Positions 6,047 to 64,000 of a DNA stretch of 64,000 bases are shown in pieces. The stretch covers positions 7,418-71,417 of the forward strand of contig JAZDNN010000024.1 of assembly GCA_043799675.1 (NCBI GenBank). Direction: 5' to 3'. The notes under the pieces were generated by a model. The model was not told the origin of the DNA. It saw nothing but the letters and a program-made list of their open reading frames with translations, and made no database searches. Made by a program: the position numbers and the translations under genes. Origin of the DNA: Candidatus Aenigmatarchaeota archaeon (GTDB lineage: Archaea; Aenigmatarchaeota; Aenigmatarchaeia; Aenigmatarchaeales; JACQIB01). Each line of letters opens with the position of its first letter. The first letter of the stretch is position 1.

Positions 6047-6253
6047 ATTGCTTTCAGAGGACGGGAGTATAAAAAGCGGAGTGGAGCCTTTAGTCTCCAC
6101 GCCACTTGCGAAACCCAAAAAAAGGTGGAGTGGAGCCTCGGGAGGGAATTGCACCCTCGACCTGCTGTTTGCTTGGTTGCTTACAAGACAGCCGCTCTTC
6201 TGCCTGAGCCACCGAGGCAAGAGATTTAATAGGCCGAGTCTTAAAAGCTTGGC

Positions 6254-49260: not shown

Positions 49261-50127
49261 TTAGCTGCGCTCTCCGGAAACCGTTCCGGTAACTGAAAAC
49301 CCGTTACTGCCGCTATCCAAGTATGTCATCGTTACAGCGAGGGTATATGGATCTCCAACGTGGCCATTCACTCCCATGGTATTTGTGCCTGTCAGCCATA
49401 CCCTTTCCAGAGGGAATAAGTTCATGGGCACGTTCATGGATGGTATTTGTAAACCGTTGACGCTTACAGACGTAATGCTGATGGTATCGCCAACCCTGTC
49501 CTCCACCCACAATTTTAACGTACCATTTGCAGCGTAATCGACATCCAGCACACCTATGTTCGTGAAGCCGCTGATTGTCTTGGGAGTGCAGGTCTGTGAT
49601 TCCTGCGGTTTGCTTGTCGTTGTCCCGCAAGAATTCGTGTCAATGCATGTTCGCATCCGCGTTCCGCCGGCACCGCACGCGGACCATGCATCGCATTGCC
49701 AGTTAGGAGTACATGTACATGGTTGTGTTTCCAAAGGCCTGTCGCTAAACAGATTGCATCTGTTTGCATCCGTGCATACCCTGCTCTGATTTCCCGAATT
49801 ACTGCAATTGGTCCATGCACTGCACTGCCAGTCAGGCACGCAGGGTGGCGTGCAGAACTGGGTTTCAACAGGCTTGTTATAATTCACGCTGCAGGAATTC
49901 GCATCTATGCATGTCCTTGTCTGCGTTCCTGAAGCGGAGCATGCATTCCACGCCCCGCACTGCCAATCAGGCGTGCATACTGGGGGCATCAGAGGCCCAC
50001 TTGGCTTAATCAGGGATTGCACAATATACAACGATGCAAGCGCAACGATTATTACAGCCAGAACCAAGATAATGACGTTTTTCTTTTCGGATTTAGGCAC
50101 ACCTATTTTCTTTTCTGACTTAGGCAC
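49261..50127 (-). CDS. secreted Cys-rich repeat protein, paralog
   Basis: same repeat module. Confidence 0.55.
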   Translation of the reverse strand: MPKSEKKIGVPKSEKKNVIILVLAVIIVALASLYIVQSLIKPSGPLMPPVCTPDWQCGAWNACSASGTQTRTCIDANSCSVNYNKPVETQFCTPPCVPDWQCSAWTNCSNSGNQSRVCTDANRCNLFSDRPLETQPCTCTPNWQCDAWSACGAGGTRMRTCIDTNSCGTTTSKPQESQTCTPKTISGFTNIGVLDVDYAANGTLKLWVEDRVGDTISITSVSVNGLQIPSMNVPMNLFPLERVWLTGTNTMGVNGHVGDPYTLAVTMTYLDSGSNGFSVTGTVSGERS

Positions 50128-50210
50128 ACCAAAAATGACTATTACCGCTTAATAAAGATGAATTTTGGCTTTGCTGCTTGATTTATTAGCGGCGCAAACG
50201 ATTAGCTGGC

Positions 50211-51795
50211 ATGGAGCAGGAACCTGAAAAGCAGACAGGCAGTCTGCCGAAGGAAATCAAGAAAATCAGCGAGGTCGTCTGGGAACTGCCCACCAGCTAC
50301 AAGAAAGGCATGCGCGTGCCGGCAAGAATATATGCGACCAAGAAGCTGCTCGATGCGATGGACGCGGGAGTGTTCGAGCAGGTCACCAACGTCGCGACCC
50401 TGCCGGGAATCGTCAAGCATGCGTTCTGTATGCCGGATGGGCACTGGGGTATGGGTCAAGTCGCGGCTTGATTCACTCAAATATGGGTTCCCAATCGGCG
50501 GCGTGGCTGCATTCGACCCGAAGGTCGGCGTGATCAGCCCGGGCGGCATCGGGTTCGACATCAACTGCGGCATGAGGTTCGTCACTACCAACCTTACTGT
50601 CAAGGACGTCAAACCCAAGCTGAAAGAACTGGTGGATATCCTGTTCAGGACGGTTCCCGCGGGCGTGGGCGGGGAAGGGTTTGTAAAATTAAGCCGCAGC
50701 CAATTCGACGAAATAATGGTCCAAGGGGCCAATTGGGTCATCGAGCACGGCTACGGTTGGAAAGAGGACACGGAAAGAATAGAGGAGTACGGCTGCATCA
50801 AAGGTGCTGATCCGTCAAAGGTCAGCGACAAGGCAAGGACCAGAGGCATCACGCAGATGGGGACGCTCGGCTCAGGGAACCATTACCTGGAAATCCAGAC
50901 TGCCGAGAAAATTTTCCTTCCCGAAGTCGCAGAGGCATTCGGCGTGAACGAACAGGGGCAGATAGGGGTGATGGTGCACTGCGGCTCGAGGGGGTTCGGC
51001 CACCAAATCGGAACGGATTATCTCAGGATATTCGACATGGCAATGAAGAAGTACAACATCACGGTGCCTGACAGGGAGCTTGCCTGTGCGCCTTTTGCGA
51101 GCCAGGAAGGACAGGATTATTATCACGCGATGGCCTGCGCGGCAAACATGGCTTTTGCCAACAGGCAGGTGATTTTGCACAGGATACGCGAGGCTTTTGC
51201 AAAGGTGTTCAGGAAATCCCCCGAAGACATGGAAATGCACCTGGTGTACGATGTCGCGCACAACGTGGCCAAGGTGGAGAAACACCTGGTCGACGGTCAT
51301 GAAAAGGAACTGGTGATGCACCGGAAGGGGAGCACGCGCTGCTTCGGTCCGGGTAGGCCGGAGATTCCTGAAGCTTACCGCAAGGTCGGCCAGCCGGTGA
51401 TTGTGGGCGGCAGCATGGAAACGGGCAGCTTTTTGTGCGTGGGCACGGACAAGGCTCTGACAGAAACATGGGGAAGCACCATGCACGGCGCGGGCAGAAC
51501 CATGAGCAGGACTTCAGCGAGGAACCAGGGCTCGGGCTTGGCGTTGCAGAAGAAGATGGCCAAGGAAGGGATACTGGTGGAAGCCACGAGCATGAGCGGG
51601 CTTGCAGAGGAAGCGGGCTTTGCCTACAAGGACCTGAACGAAGTGGTCGAGACCATGGAAATCGCGGGCGTGAGCAGGAAGGTCGTTCTGCTGAGGCCTT
51701 TGGGTAATATTAAAGGCACCGCCCGGGCCTCATACAGCCTTTTAGCTTTCCCCATACTTGTCATGGTCTTGGCCTTGATTTCGTCCCTTATCTGA
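50211..51795 (+). CDS. rtcB: tRNA-splicing ligase RtcB, interrupted by a 31-nt frame-breaking insertion (candidate BHB mRNA intron about 50451-50481); C-terminus extended past the usual ...IKG end
   Basis: N-terminal ORF (50211-50471) ends ...AFCMPDGHWGMG*; second frame continues YGFPIGGVAAF...; deleting the 31 nt restores MPDGHWGYGFPIGGV. Confidence 0.8.
50451..50481 (+). other. 31-nt insertion in rtcB (candidate archaeal BHB-type mRNA intron, or pseudogenising indel)
   Basis: flanked by direct repeat TATGGG; exon UGGG (ending 2 nt before the junction) pairs with intron CUCA 2 nt before the 3' junction; internal hairpin UCAAG/CUUGA. Confidence 0.5.
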
Positions 51796-52859
51796 ACGAT
51801 AAGCGGTTCGACCTGTTTCCACCTCGTGATGTTCTTGCCGATTATTTCGAGAATCAATTCCTTTTTGGCCGTTTTCTCGGGATGCCTCAACGGCAGCAAT
51901 TCGAGCATCCGACGGACATCGGCCTTCCTGAAGATTTCTAAGGCGAAATAATCCTTGCTGTATCTTATACTGACCCCATGAGTGTCTCTGCCGTCCCCGC
52001 GCCTGAAAATCCTGTATAGAATTGGATTAAAGCCCTGTTCCCTTAGTTGCCGTTTTATCCTACCAAGCAAGGTTTTATTTTCGGTGCCTATCCGCATACA
52101 ACACTGCAAATTTTCCCTGATTTTCTTGACCAGAAGCGACCCTTCCGCATCGAAGTAGCCGGCCAGGAACGACAGGAAAACATTCCGTTCGGATTCGACC
52201 AACTCTGAAATCAATCGTTTCCTGTTTTCCAGCAAGAGGAAGTCGAAGCTGTTGTCGAGGTCTGCGGATGTCGTCCACATGTAATTTCCAAAAGTTCTGT
52301 TCTTCGCAGGATATGTCCTTACCTTCGCATATCCTTTGAACAGGCTCTCGAAGACATCCAGGAATCCTTCATGAGTCGTGTTGGTTATGGCCCGAATGGT
52401 ATGCTTCGATCTTCTGAAGGCTGTCACATCACCCTCCACGAAACCAACCATGTAAGCCTTTTCTTCATCCTTTCCATCAAAACTTTGCCGTTCATGTTTC
52501 CTGTTTGTCAGCAGGATAGCCTCATCGTTTCCACGCACCCGAAAGCCGTTTTCTTCCAGCACCTTATGCAACGTGCCTTTGGAAGAACCAAATTTCTTGG
52601 CCAGCTTTTTCAACGATATTTTCTCCGTGTCATAAAGTCTCAGAATTTCCGTCACAGGCAGGTGTTTCCTGTGAGACAACGAATGTGCCTGACTGAGATT
52701 CCTTATCGGTATGTCAAGTTTGATGAACCGTTTTCTTACGGCCGACCACGATATATCGTCTCCGAGCTTAACACTCAATATCGCCGCCACTTCTTTGAAC
52801 GTCTTACCGGACGAATAGAGACTCTCGGCTTCCTTCAGGAGTTCGCTGTTCAGCTTCAT
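51624..52859 (-). mobile_element. free-standing LAGLIDADG homing endonuclease gene (HTH N-terminus, two LAGLIDADG motifs)
   Basis: YMVGFVEGDVT and FLSFLAGYFDAEGSL; 3' end overlaps antisense to the extended 3' end of rtcB. Confidence 0.7.
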
Positions 52860-52914
52860 GGTCGTCTATTATATCCCGTTAGGCACTATAAATTGATATA
52901 TATTCTCGAGCACA

Positions 52915-53991
52915 CTAATCATGCAGAATACATCCAAAAATATTATTATACCTTCCAGCGAGCGCATTTCTCAACCTGAACGTGTCGCCCTGCGCCGCAT
53001 AGGCCATCCAGCCCTCAAGGCTTTTCGCAGCCTGTTCTGCCGAAATCTCACCGGATTCGTACTGCAGTCTGAGTGCCGTCATCCTTTTTTCGAGCTTCAG
53101 CAGGTTCCTCCTTTTTGGAATCCTGTAGTGGTAGAACACCCTGAAGCCGAGCAACGATATCCCCTTATGCAAAGGGTAGACCTGCGATTTTTCCTCATGC
53201 AACTCTAGCTTTAACCGTTGTTTGAGGAACCCGTTTATCCCGCTCCTGAACTGCATCAGCGCGGCCTCAGACCTGTCCAGAATCACGAAGTCATCTACAT
53301 ACCGGAGATAGAACCTTGCCTTAAGCACGTGCTTCACGAAATGGTCCAGCTCATTCAGGTAGACGTTCGCGAAGAACTGGCTCGTCTGATTGCCTATCGG
53401 CATCCCCTTCGGCAGGGCAGGGTCGTTGTTCGACAGGATTTTCCGTACCAGCCAGAGCACGCTTTCGTCCCTTATTTTTCTCCGTATGATGCCAATCAGG
53501 ACATCGTGGTCGACGCTCGGGAAATAGTGCCTTATGTCGGCCTTCAGTGCATAGCCGACCACCATGTTGTTGTCCTTCGCGCCGTGCACCAAACGGCCGT
53601 TCCCGGAAACCTTTCGCTTGAAGCAATCAAACCTGTCCAATGCTGCCAGGCCGCCCTTTCCCTTCCTGTTGGCGTAGCTGTCGTGGATGAACGTTTTGTC
53701 GAAAATCGGTTCGAGCACGTTGCATAACGCATGATGGACAACACGGTCCCTGAAATGCGAGGCATGAATTACCCGTGTCTTGGGGTCGCGGATGATGAAC
53801 CGTTTCAACGGGCGCGGCGAATACGTACGATTTTCAAGCTCAGTTTTCAAATCTGCCAATTCGCCATCAAGATTAGCTTCGAATCTTTTGACATACCATT
53901 TCTTCGACTTGCCCTTCCTCGCCTTTCTGAATGCCAGCAAAAGGTTCTCTGGCGAGCAGACCTTTCCGTAAAGGTTGTCAAATGTTTTCAA
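52915..53991 (-). CDS. diversity-generating retroelement reverse transcriptase
   Basis: RT motifs including the DGR-specific motif-4 IGNQTSQ (IGxxxSQ) and YVDD; about 358 aa, no maturase or endonuclease domain; TTG start. Confidence 0.85.
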   Translation of the reverse strand: MKTFDNLYGKVCSPENLLLAFRKARKGKSKKWYVKRFEANLDGELADLKTELENRTYSPRPLKRFIIRDPKTRVIHASHFRDRVVHHALCNVLEPIFDKTFIHDSYANRKGKGGLAALDRFDCFKRKVSGNGRLVHGAKDNNMVVGYALKADIRHYFPSVDHDVLIGIIRRKIRDESVLWLVRKILSNNDPALPKGMPIGNQTSQFFANVYLNELDHFVKHVLKARFYLRYVDDFVILDRSEAALMQFRSGINGFLKQRLKLELHEEKSQVYPLHKGISLLGFRVFYHYRIPKRRNLLKLEKRMTALRLQYESGEISAEQAAKSLEGWMAYAAQGDTFRLRNALAGRYNNIFGCILHD

Positions 53992-54021
53992 AAATATCCC
54001 CTATCGGCGGCCCGTGCTATT

Positions 54022-54196
54022 GGCGCAGACCCCGTTGTCATTCAGGCTTCCCGCCAAAAGGCAATGAGGAAGTTTCCTGTTCGAGGGCCTGTTCGCATTT
54101 ATGCCGGCGGAACGTTTCCTTCCAACCGTTCGCATTGAAGCACCCTTGACGGCCCGAAGGCTCTCGTCCGTGTTCCAATCCGACCTGACGGAAGGG
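54022..54196 (-). ncRNA. DGR template repeat (TR), 175 nt unspliced; carries three BHB introns (plus-strand 54146-54162, 54099-54129, 54041-54073); spliced length 94 nt
   Basis: homologous to the 3' ends of the three target genes; Asn-codon (AAC/AAT) rich; see findings. Confidence 0.75.
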
Positions 54197-54436
54197 TTTC
54201 GGTAGCCTCTCCACCGACATGACACCGCGGCTTCAATCTTCGGGAACCTACCAACTGAAACCGCTGAATTTAATGGCACAAGCATTCGGACGGCATGAAA
54301 TGCCATCGCACCATCTTGCGCTCTATGGAAAGGCGTATAGCGCGGGCCTTTGCCGGGAGAATGAAATACCCGCCCCCCGATTGGGAAGGAAAGAACTCTG
54401 TCATGCAAAAATTGAGGGACGAAACGATTTATGCGC

Positions 54437-55183
54437 CTATTTTGAGGTCTTAACCGCTTTTTTTGCGGCGCAGACCCCGAGGTCATGCCTGAGCGAGGGC
54501 CCGCCCGCATCCGCATCGAAGCACCCCCCGTCGGAGTGCCAAGTCGACCTGACGGAAGCCACTTCAACCGGGATTAAGGCTTCTGTTTCGATTTCTACTA
54601 TATCCAGTTTGTTGTCTTTCATCCTGTAAGAAGCCGCTTTCTGTTTGGCCAGCTTTTGGATGACCTCAAGATTATGATTCCAGTAATCGTCCATCGTTGC
54701 CTTGTATTCCTTGTCGGAATTCATCAGTTCAGCCGACTCCTGTGCCTTGAAGTGTCTTACTCCAAAGTCCAGCTTGAACTCCTCGGGTATTCTCTGATAG
54801 ACCAGTTCCTGGATTATCCTGTCCGCATTGGCGATGAACCCTTTGCGTTTATAGTCCCTGAACTTTCCTGCGTCCCCTTTGGCCATCAGGAGCGCATAGC
54901 CTTTCTTTTCAAGGTCCTTTTCCAGCCTCTTTCCGTCAATTATGGCCAATATTTCATCGACCTCTCCCAACCTTTCTTTTACAGAAAAATCATCATCAAA
55001 TATTACAGAGCCATTGTAAGCGGCCAGCTTCGAATCATACGCGCCTGCTGCACGCAGATAATCGAGAACACAGCCTTCAACAGTTACAGGCACGGCTTTT
55101 CCCGTGAACCTGAATTCCCCGTCGATAATCCTCACTTCAGGCTCGGGCATCACGACCGTTGTTATTTTGCTCATGATAATCAT
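54437..55183 (-). CDS. DGR target protein A (variable region at C-terminus, plus-strand about 54467-54560)
   Basis: C-terminal ...SVRSTWHSDGGCFDADAGGPSLRHDLGVCA aligns to the spliced TR with differences at TR adenines. Confidence 0.75.
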   Translation of the reverse strand: MIIMSKITTVVMPEPEVRIIDGEFRFTGKAVPVTVEGCVLDYLRAAGAYDSKLAAYNGSVIFDDDFSVKERLGEVDEILAIIDGKRLEKDLEKKGYALLMAKGDAGKFRDYKRKGFIANADRIIQELVYQRIPEEFKLDFGVRHFKAQESAELMNSDKEYKATMDDYWNHNLEVIQKLAKQKAASYRMKDNKLDIVEIETEALIPVEVASVRSTWHSDGGCFDADAGGPSLRHDLGVCAAKKAVKTSK

Positions 55184-55186
55184 TCT

Positions 55187-55912
55187 TCAGAAGTGCTTCT
55201 TCACGACTTCGAGGTCTTTCATCAAAGCGTCATATTTCTTTGACTTTTCCAGAAGCTCCCGGTATTCGCTCTCCGCGACCTCGCACATCTTCGGAAGCTC
55301 GGCCTTCTCGTCCGTTTTAAGGAGGGCGCAGACCCCGTCGTCAGCCCAGTGCGAGGGCCTGCCCGCAGTCGCATTGAAGCACCCCTCGCCCGTGGTCCAA
55401 GCCGACCTGACGGAAGCTTCACCGTTTTCAAACGAGATGCTTCCCCTCCAGACCTTCTTTTTCGGTTTCTTGAACAGCCCGGCATTCACGAGTGTATCAA
55501 AGACGTCCGATTTGCTTATCCCGGCCCTTGTTCTTTTGCCGTCATATTTGAGTTCACCGTTCACTTCCTTCACGACGGGGTCGGCTATTATCTCGCCCTT
55601 CTCAAGGGCGACTTCCCTGTTGTGCAACCAATAATCAATATTCATTTTCTTGAACGACTTGTCCTCGTGCACCAAATCGTAAGAAACCTGCAACGGCAGG
55701 AGCGTGTAGCGCTCGCCGACCTTCTTTGATACTTCCTGACCGAGAAGCGTCATCTGCCTGTGGTCGAGGTTCGCCACGAGGCCATTGCCTTTGTAGTCGT
55801 TGTGCCCTTCGGCAGGACTTCCCTTCCATTTCGGGAAATACACCGTTTCCTTGCCCGTGGGCGGCACTATCTTTCCCGCTATCTCATGGACGATTTCGGC
55901 CTGTGTTACCAT
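55187..55912 (-). CDS. DGR target protein B (VR plus-strand about 55325-55416)
   Basis: paralog of A; VR differs from the spliced TR only at adenines (11 of 11 differences). Confidence 0.75.
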   Translation of the reverse strand: MVTQAEIVHEIAGKIVPPTGKETVYFPKWKGSPAEGHNDYKGNGLVANLDHRQMTLLGQEVSKKVGERYTLLPLQVSYDLVHEDKSFKKMNIDYWLHNREVALEKGEIIADPVVKEVNGELKYDGKRTRAGISKSDVFDTLVNAGLFKKPKKKVWRGSISFENGEASVRSAWTTGEGCFNATAGRPSHWADDGVCALLKTDEKAELPKMCEVAESEYRELLEKSKKYDALMKDLEVVKKHF

Positions 55913-55972
55913 GAGGACAATACCACCGCAAAGGATTTAAGCGGAAGACTGAACGTAAACGGCTTGAACTAC

Positions 55973-56695
55973 TCAATCGCCGCATTCGTCCAAAGCCGCT
56001 TTCCTAAAATCCAACGATTTAGGAGGGTCCTTCAGAAACTGTTGATATTCGCTCTCCGCAATCTTGCGCACCTTCGGCTTCTCAACGGCCTTGCCCGTTT
56101 TCACGAAGGCGACAACCCCGCGGTCAGGCCCGGAGGAGGGCCAAGACGCACCCACAGCGAAGCACCCAAAACGGTTTCCCGACTTGACGGAAGAAATGCC
56201 GTCATTCTCGTAAATGATGCCCCAATCACAGACGTTGTGATTGAGCTGCTTGAACAGTTTTGCGCTGGCAAGCGTCTTTATCACGGACTCTGCGTCAATG
56301 TTCGCCTTTACGCTCCTGCAACCATCATTGAGCCTGAGCTCGCCGTCGACTTCGCTGACAATCGGGACGGAAATAACATCCCCGTTTCTCCGTATGACTT
56401 CCCTGTTGATTATCTTATAATCGGCCATCATTTTCTTGAAACTTCTGTCATTATGCACCAAATCATAACTCGTCTGAAACGGAAGTTCGGCATAACGCTC
56501 GCCCACTTTCTCGGATATCATCTGACCCAAGAACACGGACTGCCACTTATCGAGAGTCGCAACAAAACCCTTACCGTAACGATCGTTGCGTCCTTCTATC
56601 GGACTTCCCTTCCACTTCGGAAAATACGCCGTTTCCTTGCCGGTAGGCATCCTAATCTTGTCCAAAATTTCATAGACGATTTCAGCTTCACCCAT
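55973..56695 (-). CDS. DGR target protein C (VR plus-strand about 56108-56195; more diverged)
   Basis: paralog of B; VR-like C-terminus with adenine-site pattern plus extra divergence. Confidence 0.65.
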   Translation of the reverse strand: MGEAEIVYEILDKIRMPTGKETAYFPKWKGSPIEGRNDRYGKGFVATLDKWQSVFLGQMISEKVGERYAELPFQTSYDLVHNDRSFKKMMADYKIINREVIRRNGDVISVPIVSEVDGELRLNDGCRSVKANIDAESVIKTLASAKLFKQLNHNVCDWGIIYENDGISSVKSGNRFGCFAVGASWPSSGPDRGVVAFVKTGKAVEKPKVRKIAESEYQQFLKDPPKSLDFRKAALDECGD

Positions 56696-56771
56696 TATAA
56701 CTAACTAGTGGTGATAGTATTTAAGGTTTCTTTTTGGGCTGGTTTATAAACCTCGGAGCAGAAAGTGGCAC

Positions 56772-57056
56772 ATGCCAATCTCGGGAGCACCGTACACGCG
56801 GCAATGGGAGCACCACAAGGGGCGGGGACACGAATCCTCGGTCACATGCGGCTACTGCGGAAGGCTTGTGCCTCGGTACAAGACGTTCACCAAGTTCAGG
56901 GGCTTCAGAATCACCGATCCCACGATACTTCAGGCGGTGGACAGGCAGTTCATCCACACCTTCAGCCAGAAGATATACGTCTGCCCGAGCTGCGCGCGGT
57001 CCCACAAGATAGTGCAGAGAGGCAAAACGAAGCAGAAAAGCCACATGTTCAGATAG
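56772..57056 (+). CDS. rps26e: ribosomal protein S26e
   Basis: KGRGH..CGYCGRLVPR...CPSCAR pattern as in S26e. Confidence 0.65.
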   Translation: MPISGAPYTRQWEHHKGRGHESSVTCGYCGRLVPRYKTFTKFRGFRITDPTILQAVDRQFIHTFSQKIYVCPSCARSHKIVQRGKTKQKSHMFR

Positions 57057-57096
57057 GATTAAAAAGAACGGTTTCTATATACTGGAGCAGATAGAT

Positions 57097-57423
57097 ATGA
57101 AAGTCATCGAAATACAACCGACGACCATGGCGGAGGCCAAGGAGATAGTGCTCGCGAAGGAGAAGGACAAGGAGCTGGGCTACGAGCAGAAGCTCGCGGC
57201 GGAGCACCTGAAGAAGTTCACCAAGCTGAAGCGCGAGGATGCCAAGAAGTTCATGAACGAGCTGACTTCCGTGCTGAAGGCCTCGCCCGAGACGCTGGTG
57301 ACCATAGCGAACGTCCTCCCGCAAACCACCGATGAGGTACGGCTGATTTTTGCCAGAGAGAAGTTCAGCGTGAAGGAAGACGAGATTTCCAAGATACTGG
57401 AGATAGTCAAGAAGTTTGTTTGA
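57097..57423 (+). CDS. rpoF: RNA polymerase subunit Rpo4/F
   Basis: 108 aa helical protein at the head of the conserved rpoF-DUF655-ksgA cluster. Confidence 0.6.
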   Translation: MKVIEIQPTTMAEAKEIVLAKEKDKELGYEQKLAAEHLKKFTKLKREDAKKFMNELTSVLKASPETLVTIANVLPQTTDEVRLIFAREKFSVKEDEISKILEIVKKFV

Positions 57424-57432
57424 GGGTTTTCT

Positions 57433-58005
57433 GTGGAAAGAGACGAATGGGCCGTAGTTCTAGACTTCCTACCTAAGGGAAAAGCATCCGGCAAGCCTGA
57501 GCCATTGGCACAAGTGCTCGGTACCTTCCGATTCGGCCTGCTGGAAGTGGTGGTAAGGGAAGGGGTCATACTCAAGCCGGGCGAGAGGCTGTACATCGGG
57601 GAACAGGAAAGGAAGGAAGTGGACCACATCAAGCGGAGGATAGCCTCCAACGAGCTGACCTCCTTTGCCCGCAATGACCTGCCGTTCGCGGTGGAAAAGA
57701 TAGTCAGGGCGGAAGAGGCGAGGTTCGTGGACTTCTTCAACAAGGCCACTTCCATCTCCGTCAGGACCCATCAGCTCGAGCTGCTTCCGGGAGTCGGAAA
57801 GAAGCACATGTGGGACATAATCAACGAGAGGAAGAAGGGGCCGTTCAAGAGCTGGGACGACATCAAGAGCAGGATAAGCCTGCTGCCGGATCCTGCCAAG
57901 CTCATAGTCCAGAGGATTCTCAAGGAGATAGACAACGACGACGAACGGTTCAGGATATTCGTGGTCGGGCCGCCGAGGCCCGAGGACAGATGGGGCAGAC
58001 GCTAG
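57433..58005 (+). CDS. DUF655 family RNA-binding protein
   Basis: conserved neighbour of rpoF; OB plus HhH-like C-terminus. Confidence 0.6.
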   Translation: MERDEWAVVLDFLPKGKASGKPEPLAQVLGTFRFGLLEVVVREGVILKPGERLYIGEQERKEVDHIKRRIASNELTSFARNDLPFAVEKIVRAEEARFVDFFNKATSISVRTHQLELLPGVGKKHMWDIINERKKGPFKSWDDIKSRISLLPDPAKLIVQRILKEIDNDDERFRIFVVGPPRPEDRWGRR

Positions 58006-58012
58006 TGATTTT

Positions 58013-58771
58013 GTGCCAAGAAAGCTCGGCCAGCATTTCCTGAAGTATCCGGAGATAGCGGAGCGGATGGCTGCGCTGGCCATAGTCGATGATTGTGATA
58101 TCGTTCTTGAGATTGGACCGGGCCATGGAGAGCTGACCCAGGTTCTTGCCTCCAAGGCCAAAAAAGTGATTGCGATAGAGAAGGACAAGATGCTTGCCGA
58201 GGCACTGGAAGGCAAATTGAGCAATGTCGAGGTGATTGCCGGGGATGCGGTAAAGCTCGAATGGCCGCACTTTGACAAGCTTGTGGCGAACCTGCCATAC
58301 GAAATAAGCAGCCCGGTGATGGAGAAATTGTTCGAGAGGAAGCACTGGAAGGTCGCTGTGCTGATGCTGCAGAAGGAGTTTGCGAAAAGGCTGACTGCGA
58401 AGGAAGGGAGCGAGGAGTGGAGCAGGCTCGGGATGGCTGCCAGTTATTACGTTGACGCGAAGCTGATTGCGAAGGTCGGGCGGGGGGCGTTCAGGCCCAT
58501 GCCCAAGGTCGAGAGCGCGATAGTGCTGATGAAGCCCAGGGAGCACCCGTTCAAGACGGACAGCCTGTTCTGGCTGGTGACAGGGAAGCTGTGGCAGCAC
58601 CGGAAGAAGCAAGTCAGAGCTGCATTGAAGCACCTCGGCAGGTACGACGGCTGCGGCGTCGGGATAGATTTTGTGCCTCACGGGATTGCGGAGAAGAGGG
58701 TGGAAAGATGCTCACTTGAGGACTTCAGGCTGATTGTTGACACGCTGAGGGAACACCTGGGGAGCGGTTGA
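58013..58771 (+). CDS. ksgA: 16S rRNA (adenine1518/1519-N6)-dimethyltransferase KsgA/Dim1
   Basis: LGQHFL, VLEIGPGHGELT, NLPY motifs. Confidence 0.9.
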   Translation: MPRKLGQHFLKYPEIAERMAALAIVDDCDIVLEIGPGHGELTQVLASKAKKVIAIEKDKMLAEALEGKLSNVEVIAGDAVKLEWPHFDKLVANLPYEISSPVMEKLFERKHWKVAVLMLQKEFAKRLTAKEGSEEWSRLGMAASYYVDAKLIAKVGRGAFRPMPKVESAIVLMKPREHPFKTDSLFWLVTGKLWQHRKKQVRAALKHLGRYDGCGVGIDFVPHGIAEKRVERCSLEDFRLIVDTLREHLGSG

Positions 58772-59014
58772 ATGGACCTGACCAACGAGAGCTATGTTAT
58801 TCTGATACACACCAAAACGGCCACCGAGCGGTACTACCGGGACAGACAGGGTTGGGTGAAGGTAAGCACCAGAGACAGAAAGTTCCGGGCGACCGCGGAG
58901 CAGGTCCTGAACCACCTGCTGCCCGCGCTGGCCGGACTCAAACCGAACGTGACGGTCGAGGTGAAACACCGCGAGGCAAGGGGCACAAGCCCGAGGGCAA
59001 TCGGAAGCGGTTGA
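58772..59014 (+). CDS. hypothetical small protein
   Basis: ORF. Confidence 0.25.
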   Translation: MDLTNESYVILIHTKTATERYYRDRQGWVKVSTRDRKFRATAEQVLNHLLPALAGLKPNVTVEVKHREARGTSPRAIGSG

Positions 59015-59077
59015 CTGCAATTGTCGACAACGGTTTCGTCAATCTGCGTTTTTAACAGACGCGAAAAAGGCTTTTAA

Positions 59078-59302
59078 ATGGGCGAATGGAATCTAGCGCA
59101 AGGTGAACCAATGAAATACGACCTATACTTCGTCGTGAAGCTGTTGACCATAATCGGTGCCATACTCTGGCTACCGTTGGCCTTCGGCTACAATGTGATA
59201 GGGACCTTATTCAGCGCCATACCGGTGCTCGTCCAAGCGATATATGTTATCATCGGATTGTGCGGTCTCTACAAGCTGTACCTGCTCTTTACAAAGAAGT
59301 AG
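59078..59302 (+). CDS. small 2-TM membrane protein
   Basis: ORF. Confidence 0.3.
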   Translation: MGEWNLAQGEPMKYDLYFVVKLLTIIGAILWLPLAFGYNVIGTLFSAIPVLVQAIYVIIGLCGLYKLYLLFTKK

Positions 59303-59329
59303 GTGCGGAATTTCCTTTTTATTCTTTTG

Positions 59330-60130
59330 TCATTCAGGTGCAGACGGGGGAATGGCGTACAAGGTTGACAGTTCCGCAGGCTTCTTTCCGGTGAGCTGGC
59401 CGACTATCTCAACGTAAGCGTCGTATTGGGCATCCACCTTTTCCTTCGGCCTCCGCTTCGGATCGTAGCTGCCGTTCTCTATCTTCACCACCGGAGCGCC
59501 GAAGCCGAGCTTTCGTGCAAGCAGAGGCATCGCGACGTCGAAGCCCCAGCGCCTGTTGTAATTCCTTATCATCGGCTGGTCAAGCAGGGTTGCCATGGCC
59601 TTCCGGCTGTAAAGCTGGCTGCCAGCGGAAGGGGGATCGAACTCGGTCAGGCCGAATTCCTCCTTCAGTATCCTGAGCATGTCCTCCCTGCGGTCGACCT
59701 CATGGGAATTCTCCGCCCTGCTTATCTCCCTCCACCTGATTCCTGCAACCGCATCGGCGCCGTTCACTACGAACGGCATTAACCTCTCAAACACGGTCTG
59801 CTGGTTGAAATCCGCATCGAGATCGGTCTTCAGGAAATAGTCCGGGTTGAACTGTGAAAGTATCCTGATGTACGCATCGTGGACGGTCCTTGCGATGCCC
59901 AGGTTCTTTTCGTTCCGGTAGGGAATCGCGGGCAGTTCGTAATCGGCACAACAACGCACCATCACATCGTAGGTGCCGTCGGTACTTCCGTCATCTATCG
60001 GGAACAGCTTGAATGAATTATCATAAAGCCTACGAAACTCATCTATCCCGTCCTTTATGTTTGCAAAGGGTTTCTTCAACCCGTCCGCCTCGTTGAAAGC
60101 GGGAAGCACGACGGCAACGGTCTTCGGCAT
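59330..60130 (-). CDS. family 2 glycosyltransferase (dolichol-phosphate sugar synthase-like)
   Basis: VVLPAFNE..., DDGSTDGT, DAD motifs. Confidence 0.75.
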   Translation of the reverse strand: MPKTVAVVLPAFNEADGLKKPFANIKDGIDEFRRLYDNSFKLFPIDDGSTDGTYDVMVRCCADYELPAIPYRNEKNLGIARTVHDAYIRILSQFNPDYFLKTDLDADFNQQTVFERLMPFVVNGADAVAGIRWREISRAENSHEVDRREDMLRILKEEFGLTEFDPPSAGSQLYSRKAMATLLDQPMIRNYNRRWGFDVAMPLLARKLGFGAPVVKIENGSYDPKRRPKEKVDAQYDAYVEIVGQLTGKKPAELSTLYAIPPSAPE

Positions 60131-60232
60131 GCACGTAAATGACCCGCAGACCCTTTAAATATAACTACTTGTTAGGAATATCTTTATATATCACTTCGAC
60201 ATATATGTTGTTACAACTGTTTTGGTGCATAC

Positions 60233-60595
60233 ATGACGAACATGAAACTTCCGTTAACGAAACCCGTGTTTGAACCGTTCTTCGGCCTTGTGAGACCGAA
60301 GCAGCCGCTGTTCAACATAGGCGGCACCGATTACAGGCAGATAACGCCGAAGAGGCCGATGGTCATACGGAAGGGATACAGCGTGAAGAGCTGCTTCTAC
60401 TACCGCGGGACAAAGACCTGCATGGGCGTGCAATGCTACTGGCCGAAGGTAGGAACATGCTCATTATACGACAGGCTGTATGCAAACACGAAGGGCGGAA
60501 GGATTGCGGCGATAAAGACCGACAGAATAAAGTTAATCAGGGCGAAACGTGCCAGGATGAAGGGCAGGCCCGCGAAGCCGTGGGGGAAGTCCTGA
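60233..60595 (+). CDS. small Cys4 protein, tandem paralog 1
   Basis: module RPMVIRKGYSVKSCFYYRGTKTCMGVQCYWPKVGTCS. Confidence 0.45.
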   Translation: MTNMKLPLTKPVFEPFFGLVRPKQPLFNIGGTDYRQITPKRPMVIRKGYSVKSCFYYRGTKTCMGVQCYWPKVGTCSLYDRLYANTKGGRIAAIKTDRIKLIRAKRARMKGRPAKPWGKS

Positions 60596-60846
60596 TGCCG
60601 GTGCTCCGCCCGACCCCAAGAAGGCCGGAGCCGCGCTGCCCGACATTCATGCCGATGATAATCAGGGCCGGGGAATACAACAAGCTGGATTTCAAGAGAC
60701 CCGCGGTGTTGAGGAAGGGAAACGACGTGATAACATGCTATCTCTGGGAAGGGACCAAGCAGTGCCTGAAGGATGCGTGCTTCTGGCCGAGGTCAGGGAA
60801 GTGCAGCATTTTCAGCAAGATAGTCAAGAACGGCAAGAAGAACTGA
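60595..60846 (+). CDS. small Cys4 protein, tandem paralog 2 (TGATG overlap with paralog 1)
   Basis: module RPAVLRKGNDVITCYLWEGTKQCLKDACFWPRSGKCS. Confidence 0.45.
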   Translation: MPVLRPTPRRPEPRCPTFMPMIIRAGEYNKLDFKRPAVLRKGNDVITCYLWEGTKQCLKDACFWPRSGKCSIFSKIVKNGKKN

Positions 60847-61938
60847 TTATAACAATAATTTCTTCAGTTCCTCGTAGCCTGCATCCGTCTTTATCGCCGT
60901 GCAATCGAAATGGGTGCGGACAGCCAGCCTTCCGCTTTCATGCAACCTGAGCATCACATCTTCCGTGCCCTTTGCGGGCACCTTGAGCTTCGAAGCCAGA
61001 ACGTGCAGGTCCCAGTAGAAGGGAGGGGCATCAGCCTCTTCCATAATCTGGGAAAGCATCTTCGCCTCTGCCGGTTTTTGTTTGAAGTCCCTGCCTTTGA
61101 TATCATCGAGGACTTCATTGACGAATACCTTGTCCTGTATCGGACCCAGATAGATGGGGCCGGCGAACTGCCAGTTTTCAATGGGTTGTGAACCTGTGCG
61201 ATATTCGCCTGTCTTTGGATTGTAACTCACGAATTTGAACTTCTTCAGCAGACCTTCTATCTCGCCTGCATGCCCGATCCTTCCGTAGCAACGGAAATAA
61301 TGGCGCGTGGAATGGGAAAGCACCGGAACAAAAGCCCTGTCCCGGCGGGCGAACGTGAGGATTATGAACGAAACGAGGGTCCTCAGTCCCAATTCGGAAT
61401 AGAACGGCGCGCCCTTGAAGGTGACGATGCCGTACTTGCGGAAACAGGCGGCCGGGGCGGAGCCGCTCAGCGGGGCGGTGTCGGTGGCAGTGACGGCCAC
61501 GAAGCCCTTGTGCCAGACGCTGCGTGCAGCACCATCCAGGAAAAGATTGGGGGAACCGAACGGGTCGATGTCGATGAAATCGAACAGACGGTCATGGAAC
61601 AGCCTGTTCGCATCAACACAGGACGTCCTGCATCTTTTCTGAAGTTTGTTGAGCGTGATGTTCTTTTTGATTACTTTGACCGCGAACGGGTTCTTGTCGT
61701 TCAGCACTACCTCCTTCAGTCCTTCGACTTCGGCTGCATAGCGGAGGCCGCGCATCCCGGCGGCTGCCAATGCGTCACAGACCGTGAGCTTCTGCCTGCT
61801 GATTCTCTGCCAGGTCTGAAGGACGGAAATCGAGATGTCGCGCTGGAACTCGGCCGCGGGATTGTAGAACGCGCCCTTGCCGAGCGCAGGGGAGGCCCAG
61901 ACTTCGACCTTCCCTTCCCGGACTTTCTCAACACTCAT
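60847..61938 (-). CDS. trm1: tRNA (guanine26-N2)-dimethyltransferase Trm1
   Basis: IDIDPFGSP and Trm1 N-terminal motifs. Confidence 0.8.
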   Translation of the reverse strand: MSVEKVREGKVEVWASPALGKGAFYNPAAEFQRDISISVLQTWQRISRQKLTVCDALAAAGMRGLRYAAEVEGLKEVVLNDKNPFAVKVIKKNITLNKLQKRCRTSCVDANRLFHDRLFDFIDIDPFGSPNLFLDGAARSVWHKGFVAVTATDTAPLSGSAPAACFRKYGIVTFKGAPFYSELGLRTLVSFIILTFARRDRAFVPVLSHSTRHYFRCYGRIGHAGEIEGLLKKFKFVSYNPKTGEYRTGSQPIENWQFAGPIYLGPIQDKVFVNEVLDDIKGRDFKQKPAEAKMLSQIMEEADAPPFYWDLHVLASKLKVPAKGTEDVMLRLHESGRLAVRTHFDCTAIKTDAGYEELKKLLL

Positions 61939-62174
61939 ATGCCCACCAGAATCTTCCTGGCACCCTTCCTCTCAATTCTGGATTCCATGACATGCGAGAG
62001 GAAGCTCAGCAACCAGCAGGCAAGTGCAAGATAAGCGAACAAAAAATCGGAACTGCCTATCGCCATTACCGTGAAAACCGCTATGCCGTAGAAACCTATA
62101 TGTTCCAGCAGACCGAACAACCTGACCGCTTGCATATTACGATTGACGTAGGGACACCTTATAACTATAAAAGG

Positions 62175-63215
62175 ATGTGCACGCGTCAGTTGCGCATGCC
62201 CGTGGACTTCCTGAAAGTTCTGGCGGAGAAGAAGAACTTCGTCTGGCCGGAGCTGCAGAGCTATCTGCCGAAAGACGGCTGCCTGCACAGCAGGATGATC
62301 AGGGACTATCCGGAAAGGGGAGGAAAATACGTGCGTTCGGGCCTGGTGATGCTCGCCTGCGAGGCGTTCGGCGGGGACCCGAAGAAGGCGATAAAGACGG
62401 CGGCGGCGATGGAAGCCAGCCAGAACTGGATACTGATTCATGACGACATAGAGGATGATTCCGACGACAGGAGAGGGAAGCCAACGCTGCACAAGATGTA
62501 CGGAAGCGAGCTGGCAATCAATGCGGGCGATGCCCTTCATGTGCTCCAATGGAAGATGCTGGCCGACAACCGCCAGGTGCTCGGGGACGCGATGATGTGC
62601 AAAGTGCTCAATGAATTTTACAGCATCCTGGAAAGGACCACGCTGGGCCAGACCATCGAGATGGAATGGATAAAGAGCAACAACTTCAATTTCACCGAAA
62701 AGGACTACTACGTCATAAGCGATTCCAAGACAGGACTTTATACGATAACCGGGCCGATGAGGCTGGGCGCGATAATCGCGGGGGCCCAGGAACATGAAAT
62801 GGTCGCATTGGGAAAGTTCGGCATCCCGTTCGGGCGGGCGTTCCAGATACAGGACGACGTATTGAATCTGACAGCCGAACAGGCGAAGTACGGGAAGGAA
62901 ATCGGCGGAGACATCCTTGAGGGAAAGAGGACGCTGATGGTGGCACATCTTCTTGCCAACACCGACGGGCATGAAAAGCAAAAGGTGATTGAGATTTTCT
63001 CGAAGCCGCGCCAGCAGAAGACGCAGGAAGAGACGAAATGGGTGCTGGACATGATGAGAAGGAAAGGTAGCATAGATTTCGGGAAGCGGAAGAGCCTGGA
63101 ATTCGCAAGGGAAGCGGAACAAATCTTTGACAGGGAGATGGGGTTCCTGAAGGACAGCCCTGCAAAGGAAGCGCTAAGGGCGGGAATAGAATTCGTGGTC
63201 AAACGCGACCTTTAG
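62175..63215 (+). CDS. geranylgeranyl diphosphate synthase (short-chain trans-prenyltransferase)
   Basis: two aspartate-rich motifs HDDIEDDSDDRRG and QIQDDVLN; internal ATG chosen. Confidence 0.8.
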   Translation: MCTRQLRMPVDFLKVLAEKKNFVWPELQSYLPKDGCLHSRMIRDYPERGGKYVRSGLVMLACEAFGGDPKKAIKTAAAMEASQNWILIHDDIEDDSDDRRGKPTLHKMYGSELAINAGDALHVLQWKMLADNRQVLGDAMMCKVLNEFYSILERTTLGQTIEMEWIKSNNFNFTEKDYYVISDSKTGLYTITGPMRLGAIIAGAQEHEMVALGKFGIPFGRAFQIQDDVLNLTAEQAKYGKEIGGDILEGKRTLMVAHLLANTDGHEKQKVIEIFSKPRQQKTQEETKWVLDMMRRKGSIDFGKRKSLEFAREAEQIFDREMGFLKDSPAKEALRAGIEFVVKRDL

Positions 63216-63228
63216 CCGCCTTTTAAGC

Positions 63229-63936
63229 GTGATTTTTTTAATACGGCAATCGGTGAATAAGGCAATTGTCGCGGTCTGCGTTATGTATGGAAAGGACGTG
63301 GATGTTGTGATGCCGAACCGGTCGATTCCGAATATGATTGGACGAAGTATTGCTTTCACGGACTGCACCGACATGTACATGGACGAGGTGAGGCCGCTGG
63401 CGGAAAGGTTCGGTCTTTACGGGGCGTACATGGAATCCAAGTCCAATCTTGACGGAAAGAAACTGAAGAAATACTCGATGCTTCTGCAAGGGCACAGCCT
63501 CGGCGAGGTGGAAGGCATGATGACCGCCGAACCGTTCGAGGGCGCCAGGGGCGTCATACACGCCCTGAAGAACTCGGGCTACGAGGTGCATGTGATAAGC
63601 GACAACCCGCTGCTTACCCTCCCCGGGGCGTCCAAGAAGCTGTACCAGCTCGGTATAGGATACATCCATCCGACCATCAAGCTGGACGTCAGGAACGGCT
63701 GTTTCACCGGCTATCTGGACAGCTACAGGCCGAAGGAGGAGATAGTGATGGAAGTGGTGAGAAAGATGCAGCCCGACCGCATTATCGGGATAGGGCACGC
63801 GAACAACGACAGGGACATGCTGGAAATCGTGAAGGATCTTGAGGGGACCACGATAGCCATCGGGAAAGAACTCGAAGCCGACCACAACGTGAATGATCTG
63901 GACGAGCTCGCCCGCCTGATTCCGATGCTCCCATGA
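63229..63936 (+). CDS. HAD-superfamily hydrolase-like protein (start uncertain)
   Basis: IGIGHANNDRDML resembles HAD motif III/IV; motif I atypical. Confidence 0.35.
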   Translation: MIFLIRQSVNKAIVAVCVMYGKDVDVVMPNRSIPNMIGRSIAFTDCTDMYMDEVRPLAERFGLYGAYMESKSNLDGKKLKKYSMLLQGHSLGEVEGMMTAEPFEGARGVIHALKNSGYEVHVISDNPLLTLPGASKKLYQLGIGYIHPTIKLDVRNGCFTGYLDSYRPKEEIVMEVVRKMQPDRIIGIGHANNDRDMLEIVKDLEGTTIAIGKELEADHNVNDLDELARLIPMLP

Positions 63937-64000
63937 ACTTTTAAACACCGCAAAGCATCTGCAGCGTATGCTCAACCAAAGGGTGATGGTCACCGCGGTG

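Follow-up and report, generated by a model that had tools for sequence, protein, structure and literature searches.

The window, a 64,000-nucleotide stretch of a Candidatus Aenigmatarchaeota (DPANN) MAG, carries three tandem target ORFs (A, B and C) on the minus strand, upstream of a DGR reverse transcriptase (RT). A template repeat (TR) and a structured RNA lie between the RT and the first target gene:

52915–53991, minus strand: DGR reverse transcriptase, 358 aa, TTG start; Pfam RVT_1 (E = 3e-16); IGNQTSQ motif
54022–54194, minus strand: template repeat (TR), 173 nt of DNA, comprising four exons totalling 92 nt and three predicted introns
54197–54373, minus strand: RT-16 structured RNA (Rfam RF03019); 57.2 bits in cmscan (gathering score 50; E = 4.4e-7), full model 1–158
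54437–55183, minus strand: target gene A, 248 aa; a separate subfamily whose N-terminus differs and which lacks the C-terminal helix
55187–55912, minus strand: target gene B, 241 aa; of the targets, the one rewritten most recently; C-terminal helix at residues 211–238
55973–56695, minus strand: target-family gene C, 240 aa; ORF intact, variable region decayed and no longer templated

The RT is encoded by an intact ORF that adjoins the TR. It is of the DGR type and has more than 7900 homologues, for the most part in DPANN; it shares 55% identity with the RT encoded on the published AAA011-G17 contig of Nanoarchaeota (locus L029). A search of the whole window for a second, collinear TR found none. 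No Avd-type gene was seen in the cassette; between target A and the RT, the ORF list holds no small ORF apart from frames that span RT-16 and the TR. RT-16 abuts the 5' end of the TR, and the same placement is seen in 16/16 other DPANN DGR loci tested, with RT-16 ending 0–3 nt before the TR. This consistent position makes RT-16 the 5' element of the RNA of archaeal DGRs. The motif had been reported as a candidate RNA located close to RT genes, in a study that gave such RT motifs no role, except for RT-10, which was linked to a DGR (Weinberg et al. 2017, PMC5737381). The orphan Rfam motif thereby acquires a position within the element, flanking the archaeal TR on its 5' side.

Target genes and adenine-specific variation

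The three ORFs exist as the initial annotation had described them. The core motifs that it had ascribed to all three, PTGKETxYFPKWKGSP and SYDLVH.D.SFKKM, are common to B and C (51% identity); A lacks PTGKET..KWKGSP, differs over its N-terminal 70 aa and aligns with B over 197 aa at only ~28% identity (tblastn E = 4e-11). The C-terminal motif SVRS.W....GCF.A.A..PS.....GVCA is confirmed in A, B and C. The nearest relatives of A (41–54% identity) are DGR targets encoded in other genomes, at loci L008, L009 and L088. The suggestion of a recent tandem duplication has to be given up, since identities among the three proteins are only 28–51% and A is closer to these targets from other genomes than to its own neighbors.

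Each gene carries a variable region (VR) or its remnant near the 3' end:

54467–54558, minus strand: VR-A, 92 nt, in the region of A equivalent to that of VR-B in B; 14 differences at TR adenines and 2 at non-A positions
55325–55416, minus strand: VR-B, 92 nt, amino acids 167–196 of B; 11 differences, all at TR adenines
56108–56193, minus strand: VR-C remnant, 86 nt; against the spliced TR, 15 mismatches at A, 11 at non-A positions and 6 gap columns

Differences were counted against the spliced TR, which has 92 nt with 22 A and 70 non-A positions. VR-B shows no mismatch at the 70 non-A positions and, with VR-A and VR-B taken together, 25/27 differences fall at the 22 adenines of the 92-nt template. 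The two non-A states of VR-A are those of the TR of a related locus (L006), and A thus retains two states of an older TR version. The TR, VR-A and VR-B share the invariant 3' boundary GGGGTCTGCGCC. The remnant in C departs from this adenine-only pattern, with 11 non-A mismatches as well as indels, and its 3' end reads GGGGTTGTCGCC in place of the present GGGGTCTGCGCC.

A and B are real DGR targets. The idea that A, B and C are ordinary paralogues, with neutral C-terminal variation that has nothing to do with the RT, draws on their paralogy alone and has next to no probability. In fact, neutral divergence, which the initial annotation had named, together with clear homology to a known non-DGR family, as the outcome that would overturn its reading, is contradicted by the concentration of the differences at template adenines; a DGR-type RT is adjacent, and the variable columns across homologues coincide with the AAY codons of the TR. 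The same comparison bears out two further points of that annotation, namely that VR-C is more diverged and two codons shorter (6 nt) and that homing activity differs among the genes: B is perfect at non-A sites, A lags with older TR states, and C has decayed. The proposal that one RT and one TR serve three targets stands for A and B and fails for C. The locus preserves three life stages of a target: active, lagging and dead.

Protein family and likely fold of the targets

By sequence, the family is indeed as unrecognised as first described. Searches of Pfam, PHROG and PDB sequences with A, B, C and 86 family members returned nothing, with 0/86 members matching a relevant Pfam family (e.g., FGE-sulfatase or DUF1566). 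A PDB search with profiles A3 and A4 revealed no chain at E < 0.1. The family is small, with 121 cluster representatives among 1.84 billion proteins. The reported absence of a signal peptide or TM segment also holds: the maximum Kyte-Doolittle 19-residue mean is 1.10 for A, B and C.

An AF2 model of B (pLDDT 95.9) has a secondary-structure order that can be read as CLec-like. With this model, Foldseek matches at probability > 0.1 are only CLec-fold proteins, PvdO (E = 0.023) and the TC14 C-type lectin, and both matches are weak. PvdO is FGE-like, and FGE is the CLec subclass to which Mtd and TvpA belong (PMC5006420). AvpA, whose CLec fold is established by crystallography, is ~250 aa long, and its VR of ~27 aa lies close to the C-terminus, with a helical tail behind it (PMC5006420). 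When the L029 target was used to search the PDB, the AvpA chain was not recovered, and the likeness to AvpA is thus one of layout. In a fold of the AvpA kind, the beta4'-loop segment would carry the variable residues, with the invariant 3' end of the VR encoding the closing beta5 strand.

The initial annotation had considered the proteins unlike C-type lectin targets and a candidate for a new diversified binding scaffold outside the CLec fold. This proposal is consistent with the lack of any sequence family match, with the lack of a Foldseek match at E <= 0.001 in PDB or BFVD, and with AvpA being missing among the Foldseek matches. We nevertheless consider a novel scaffold unlikely, because the architecture matches that of AvpA and the only, weak, fold matches are CLec-fold proteins. 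The proteins are most likely small, soluble and ligand-binding, with a divergent C-type-lectin fold like that of AvpA. The targets themselves are therefore the more ordinary part of the locus: orphan target genes in Nanoarchaeota DGRs have already been published (PMC4372165), and this is one more orphan family of DPANN variable proteins, probably CLec-like.

Template inserts with bulge–helix–bulge geometry

Bulge–helix–bulge (BHB) introns of archaea occur in tRNA, rRNA and a few mRNAs (e.g., cbf5), where they are cut by the splicing endonuclease EndA and the exons are joined by RtcB. Three stretches of the TR, 17, 31 and 33 nt long, have no counterpart in VR-A or VR-B. Because of these TR-only inserts, the TR spans 173 nt against 92 nt for the VR and the two are not collinear; the initial annotation took the TR as ordinary and overlooked them. 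Below, square brackets enclose the strands of the central helix and a slash marks the junction:

54163–54194, 54130–54145, 54074–54098 and 54022–54040, minus strand: TR exons, 92 nt in sum
54146–54162, minus strand: TR intron I1, 17 nt, [GACG]AG/A GCC-UUCG-GGC [CGUC]AA/G
54099–54129, minus strand: TR intron I2, 31 nt, [AUGC]GA/A CGG..hairpin..CCG [GCAU]AA/A
54041–54073, minus strand: TR intron I3, 33 nt, [CAGG]AA/A CUUCC...GGAAG [CCUG]AA/U

The VR sequence serves as a proxy for the spliced product and fixes the exon junctions. At a VR-compatible boundary, the central helix of each insert is fully paired (4/4), the bulges are 3 nt long and the intron helix has 3–6 bp. The junction falls after the second bulge nucleotide, and sliding the 3' boundary by 1–3 nt destroys the fit. 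The exon-side outer helix has 0–2 bp, and I2 and I3 have a weak one or none, which corresponds to the relaxed HBh' form; this form needs a broad-specificity endonuclease, for which an epsilon2 or alpha2beta2 subunit type is expected. The predicted exon junctions are GACGAG/GGGUGC, AAUGCGA/AUGCGAAC and CAGGAA/UGACAAC, and the spliced TR of 92 nt would code SVRSDWNTDEGCFNANANRPSNRNDNGVCA.

The MFE fold of I2 contains the 4-bp helix, a 3-nt bulge and then a helix, and that of I3 is a BHB half-motif (z = -2.0). Folding energies are otherwise unexceptional (z = +0.67, -0.96 and -2.0 for the I1, I2 and I3 segments and -0.84 for the whole TR region). Since energy alone fails to single out the introns, the evidence for them is geometric and comparative. 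We note that a de novo BHB scan of TR regions under relaxed criteria yields false positives as well, which makes the VR-defined boundaries essential.

Analysis of related loci reveals strict BHB geometry in 37/64 TR-only inserts (13–60 nt) from 25 loci, that is, 24 related loci and the window. The number expected by chance is 0.84 for random placement (maximum 6 in 2000 trials) and 1.4 when the 3' boundary is slid by 1–3 nt. At least one strict BHB insert is present in 23/68 loci with a confident TR/VR pair, and such an insert is found in 17/21 loci whose RTs are at least 56% identical to the window RT, the window locus included. I1, I2 and I3 occupy identical exon positions in the window, L006, L167, L169, L009 and L008, while L088 has I1 and I3 only; the RTs of these seven intron-sharing lineages are 62–100% identical. 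The interior sequences and lengths of the introns vary between lineages and the changes in the central helix are compensatory, as seen in I1, which combines a loop swap with the series GACG/CGUC to AACG/CGUU to AAUG/CAUU. The AAA011-G17 locus (L029) has an 18-nt BHB insert of its own.

Each non-A state that is peculiar to the spliced TR of one lineage recurs in that lineage's own VR; transfer therefore continued after intron gain. This mirroring weighs heavily against a dead element, in which the inserts would be junk gained after inactivation and the VR differences would be old. The clear decay of VR-C and the two non-A mismatches of VR-A are what one would expect of such a relic; seven lineages with inserts at identical positions, the intact RT ORF and the unblemished non-A positions of VR-B are not. 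We regard a dead DGR as very improbable.

The same BHB rule applies elsewhere in the window. It excises the canonical 37/38 intron of a tRNA-Thr, and it applies to a gene that lies 1.2 kb from the RT gene:

50211–51720, plus strand: RtcB RNA ligase gene, the presumed exon ligase, with a 31-nt BHB-type intron at 50451–50481

Removing the 31 nt yields a gap-free RtcB that is 95% identical over 492 aa to the uninterrupted L167 RtcB. A sequencing frameshift was considered for this frame break and rejected, as the 31 nt show the complete BHB geometry and can be excised exactly. The adjacent RtcB gene would thus itself need such splicing.

The inserts could also be lost without splicing, if the DGR RT jumped three stable hairpins in an unspliced TR RNA and so produced a cDNA that lacks them. 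All three inserts do contain hairpins, and template switching is possible for group-II-like RTs. However, jumping does not predict a 4-bp helix between two 3-nt bulges with the junction exactly after the second bulge nucleotide, which is found in 37/64 inserts against about one expected. Some inserts, for example those of L094 (13 nt) and I4 of L090, have almost no intron hairpin yet a strong exon–exon helix, and the tRNA-Thr and RtcB introns follow the same rule with no RT involved. Jumping is therefore improbable, and the TR RNA is most likely spliced before reverse transcription.

Proposed template maturation and comparison with known systems

From these sequence comparisons, we propose that a single transcript would contain the RT-16 element and the TR, probably together with the RT ORF. 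The host tRNA-splicing endonuclease (EndA), for which the window shows no gene, would cut within the 3-nt bulges of each intron, in each case past the second nucleotide, and RtcB, encoded next door, would ligate the exons to a 92-nt template; this removal at the RNA level by EndA and RtcB is the step that we infer. The RT would then copy the spliced RNA with adenine-specific errors, and the cDNA would replace the last ~90 nt of the variable region in gene B and, less recently, in gene A. Gene C would be an older paralogue in which rewriting ceased as its VR and 3' recognition end drifted.

Taken as a whole, the locus is quite likely a chromosomal DGR of a Candidatus Aenigmatarchaeota archaeon with a TR split by three BHB introns and a spliced TR that is copied into the targets. 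There is, likewise, a good probability that the template RNAs of Aenigmatarchaeota-like DPANN DGRs are matured in this manner, with EndA and RtcB removing 1–3 BHB introns before mutagenic reverse transcription. As for the purpose of the introns, it is possible that they break the homology between TR and VR and thereby protect the master template, which could otherwise be replaced by its own cDNA or through recombination with VRs.

If correct, this proposal would add an undescribed step to DGR biology and a new class of host RNA for BHB introns, and the archaeal splicing endonuclease would gain a new class of substrate. Diversification would be tied to RNA-splicing capacity, and the dependence of retrohoming on host RNA processing would constitute a new control point. 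The system would also be a natural case of an RT that regularly inserts into a genome the intron-less version of a template that has introns. On the practical side, TR/VR detection that assumes collinear repeats may miss or truncate such elements, in which case DPANN DGRs are probably under-counted.

Among the closest known systems are the Nanoarchaeota/DPANN DGRs (Paul et al. 2015, PMC4372165; Handa et al. 2016, PMC5006420). They have an RT of the same clade with no Avd gene beside it, and targets of ~250 aa without signal peptide or sequence family, with a VR of ~30 aa near the C-terminus and a helical tail. In contrast, the target family described here is separate and small, has no sequence link to PDB chains, and is present in three tandem copies at different stages of activity. 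Neither PMC4372165 nor PMC5006420 mentions TR introns, and no paper was found in the searchable literature that combines DGR with bulge-helix-bulge, BHB or splicing endonuclease.

The DGRs of BPP-1 (Mtd) and Treponema (TvpA) share the adenine-specific transfer from TR to VR, the location of the VR at the target ORF's 3' end, the AAY template codons, the invariant GC-rich 3' end and the IGxxxSQ motif of the RT. Their TR, however, is collinear with the VR, whereas the TR in the window is interrupted by three introns (173 nt against a VR of 92 nt). BPP-1 has a 3' spacer element, RT-10/Sp (PMC5737381), whereas the window has RT-16 on the 5' side of the TR, and no Avd gene was seen in its cassette.

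Similarly to known archaeal BHB introns, the TR introns combine a 4-bp helix with two 3-nt bulges, splicing after the second bulge nucleotide and lengths of 12–60 nt. They differ from those of tRNA, rRNA and mRNA in that most are of the relaxed HBh' form and that they interrupt a retroelement's template, the spliced product of which would, in the proposed scheme, be read by an RT and written back to DNA.

Target genes, template and variable regions

The cassette lies on the minus strand, with the reverse transcriptase (RT) downstream of target genes A, B and C, which are present just as the initial annotation stated.

52915-53991, minus: RT, 358 aa; RVT_1 E = 3e-16, DGR-type IGNQTSQ motif
54022-54194, minus: template repeat (TR), 173 nt, between A and the RT
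54197-54373, minus: Rfam RT-16 (RF03019), match ending 3 nt before the TR
54437-55183, minus: target gene A, ORF of 248 aa
54467-54558, minus: variable region VR-A; 16 differences, 14 at template adenines and 2 elsewhere
55187-55912, minus: target gene B, ORF of 241 aa
55325-55416, minus: variable region VR-B; 11 differences, all at template adenines, 0 at the 70 other positions
55973-56695, minus: target gene C, ORF of 240 aa

A hypothetical protein from a Candidatus Aenigmatarchaeota MAG matches protein B at 100% identity; among the neighbouring genes are RtcB and a tRNA whose intron is of the archaeal type. The cassette holds no Avd-like ORF, and A, B and C are all free of hydrophobic segments, in line with the reported absence of TM segments. 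The conserved core previously ascribed to all three proteins is found in B and C (51% identity), whereas A lacks PTGKET..KWKGSP, has a different 70-aa N-terminus and is only ~28% identical to B. Its closest relatives (41-54% identity) are targets of other DGRs, in loci L008, L009 and L088. This divergence and closer kinship elsewhere mark A, as judged from sequence, as a second subfamily of the target family; no duplication among A, B and C is recent, contrary to the recent tandem duplication first proposed.

The TR is the sole template-like repeat in the window. Its excess over the 92-nt VR consists of three TR-only inserts, I1, I2 and I3; their removal leaves a 92-nt template with 22 adenines, coding SVRSDWNTDEGCFNANANRPSNRNDNGVCA. 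Both non-A states of VR-A are those of the TR in the related lineage L006, so the latest rewriting of A drew on an older template version. VR-C, already described as more diverged and two codons shorter, is indeed 6 nt short with 11 non-A mismatches, and its 3' end (GGGGTTGTCGCC versus GGGGTCTGCGCC in the TR) has lost the match; gene C is thus intact, but its VR is dead. Comparison of the three VRs with the TR therefore reduces the proposed one-RT, one-TR service of three targets to A and B, while the suggested differential homing is supported: VR-B is clean at non-A sites, VR-A stems from an older template and VR-C is dead.

RT-16 is a candidate RNA near RT genes, from a study that gives such RT motifs no role except for a link between RT-10 and one DGR (PMC5737381). 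It occurs at the same place in 16/16 other DPANN DGR loci tested (L006, L008-L012, L017, L029, L049, L081, L088, L093, L106, L118, L167, L169), with TR introns present or absent, and ends 0-3 nt before the TR wherever the TR was mapped. Given this constant position, RT-16 appears to form the structured 5' part of archaeal DGR RNAs.

At L006 2520-4307 (GCA_038999215.1), a tyrosine integrase gene and a pair of tRNA genes lie ahead of the cassette (target, RT-16, TR, RT), which suggests that in some lineages an integrative element carries the DGR; window positions 50000-64000 contain no integrase. Two further loci (L001 6733-7282; L003 6739-7287) carry target-family homologues with diversified VRs and no RT or TR nearby. 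These homologues are flanked by a Phage_integrase gene and ~550 nt of non-coding DNA composed of two similar GC-hairpin-rich units; they may be served by a template located elsewhere in their genomes, or this region may encode another RNA.

Intron geometry in the template and in neighbouring genes

As RNA, all three TR inserts have the anatomy of archaeal bulge-helix-bulge (BHB) introns, a 4-bp helix (square brackets) between two 3-nt bulges, and the exon junction that the VR requires (^) lies, in both bulges, directly after nucleotide 2.

54146-54162, minus: I1, 17 nt; [GACG]AG^A GCC-UUCG-GGC [CGUC]AA^G
54099-54129, minus: I2, 31 nt; [AUGC]GA^A CGG...CCG [GCAU]AA^A
54041-54073, minus: I3, 33 nt; [CAGG]AA^A CUUCC...GGAAG [CCUG]AA^U

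The outer exon helix is weak in I2 and I3 (relaxed HBh' form), and folding energies of the TR introns are unremarkable. As a check within the window itself, the splice-site rule excises a tRNA intron ([CUUG]UA^A GCAAC [CAAG]CA^A; anticodon stem of 5 bp), and it also removes an insert from the adjacent RtcB gene.

6131-6218, minus: tRNA-Thr(UGU), 88 nt; 12-nt canonical BHB intron at 37/38
50211-51720, plus: RtcB RNA-ligase gene, split over two reading frames by an insert
50451-50481, plus: RtcB insert, 31 nt; [UGGG]GU^A, 9-bp hairpin, [CUCA]AA^U; full BHB geometry
51624-52859, minus: LAGLIDADG_3 + HTH ORF, 411 aa, between RtcB and the RT; Pfam E = 3.3e-9

Without the 31 nt, RtcB aligns gap-free with the uninterrupted L167 RtcB (95% identical over 492 aa); the ligase of BHB exons would then be made from an mRNA that itself requires BHB splicing. 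In L167, RtcB and the RT are 28 nt apart. Insertion of the LAGLIDADG_3 ORF, probably a free-standing homing endonuclease, replaced the RtcB stop codon and lengthened the protein by 25 aa; in L009, a homologue of this ORF (39% identity) is next to RtcB and a DGR target of the A type. At least four independent lineages (the window, L167/L168, L009, L011, L134) have RtcB no more than ~6 kb from the DGR RT, in differing orientations, which could reflect inherited synteny or functional linkage with TR splicing. Also nearby is a 288-aa ORF (49261-50127, minus) with an N-terminal hydrophobic anchor and three ~45-aa Cys-rich repeats (C.PDWQC..W..CS..G.Q.R.C.D.N.C), which has no Pfam match.

Conservation of template introns and a model of splicing

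We surveyed 160 loci with related RTs, together with close relatives found via proteins, aligning a 500-nt segment just upstream of every RT with the remainder of the locus, template-adenine changes being tolerated and long TR-only gaps permitted. A strict BHB geometry (4/4 central pairs and two or more pairs in the intron helix, at a boundary that the VR allows) is present in 37 of 64 TR-only inserts (13-60 nt), against 0.84 expected from random placement (maximum 6 in 2000 trials) and 1.4 when the 3' boundary is slid by 1-3 nt. At least one such intron occurs in 23/68 loci with a confident TR/VR pair, and in 17/21 loci, the window's included, that share 56% or more RT identity with the window. 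BHB geometry is also seen in an 18-nt TR-only insert in the published DGR of Nanoarchaeota SCGC AAA011-G17 (L029 1716-1733, AQRL01000028.1; [CUCG]AA^A UCU-AAAAA-AGA [CGGG]AC^U).

In the seven closest lineages (the window's, L006, L167, L169, L009, L008, L088), exon positions of the introns are identical; I1 and I3 occur in 7/7 and I2 is absent only in L088. Intron interiors vary in sequence and length: I1 measures 17, 17, 17, 21, 33, 33 and 26 nt, its loops include UUCG (one lineage) and GCAA (others), and its helices include GCC/GGC (some lineages) and ACAG/CUGU (one other). The central helices carry compensatory changes, both in I1 (GACG/CGUC, AACG/CGUU, AAUG/CAUU) and in I3 (CAGG/CCUG versus CGAG/CUCG). 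Every lineage-specific non-A substitution of the spliced TR is mirrored in the same lineage's own VR. TR-to-VR transfer therefore continued after intron acquisition, and the introns must have been bypassed in each round. Both this mirroring and the conservation across lineages contradict the view that the inserts are junk gathered after the death of the DGR.

The best explanation of these sequence patterns is that the TR RNA is spliced before copying: the tRNA-splicing endonuclease would cut it at the introns, RtcB would join the exons, and the RT would then copy the product. That the RT instead jumps over insert hairpins on unspliced RNA seems improbable, as jumping does not predict the BHB register and leaves unexplained those inserts with scarcely any hairpin but a strong exon-exon helix (e.g., the 13-nt insert of L094). 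The introns divide TR/VR homology into 16-32-nt blocks, and we speculate that they are kept because this could protect the master template against recombination and overwriting by its own cDNA; alternatively, they may be tolerated passengers of an intron-rich genome.

Full-text literature searches yielded nothing relevant on DGRs with BHB motifs, splicing endonuclease or splicing; a mention in Paul et al. 2017 is possible. The 2015 nanoarchaeal DGR paper (PMC4372165) leaves TR interruptions, including the 18-nt L029 insert, unmentioned. The intron-bearing template is a new DGR variant, and the interest of the locus rests on this putatively spliced template more than on the three genes.

Target family and predicted fold

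No member of the target family matches a relevant Pfam family, PHROG family or PDB sequence, and an exhaustive profile search of 1.84 billion proteins retrieved just 121 cluster representatives; at the sequence level the family is thus unrecognised, as the initial annotation held. The AlphaFold model of B (pLDDT 95.9, 86-sequence alignment) comprises strand 45-47, helices 51-65 and 74-93, and several beta strands, followed by strands 165-173 and 178-184, a loop, strand 197-200 and a long helix (211-238). The VR corresponds to residues 167-196, spanning the final two sheet strands and the loop, and its invariant 3' end encodes the closing strand. The expectation of a novel scaffold unlike C-type lectin targets therefore gives way to a CLec-like fold as the more probable reading. 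Taken alone, the target genes are a further example of already known proteins: orphan, probably CLec-like DPANN variable proteins in a multi-target cassette. The predicted layout of B is that of AvpA, the CLec-fold variable protein of Nanoarchaeota (PMC5006420), in which the VR likewise covers the last sheet strands and loop and its 3' end forms the closing strand.
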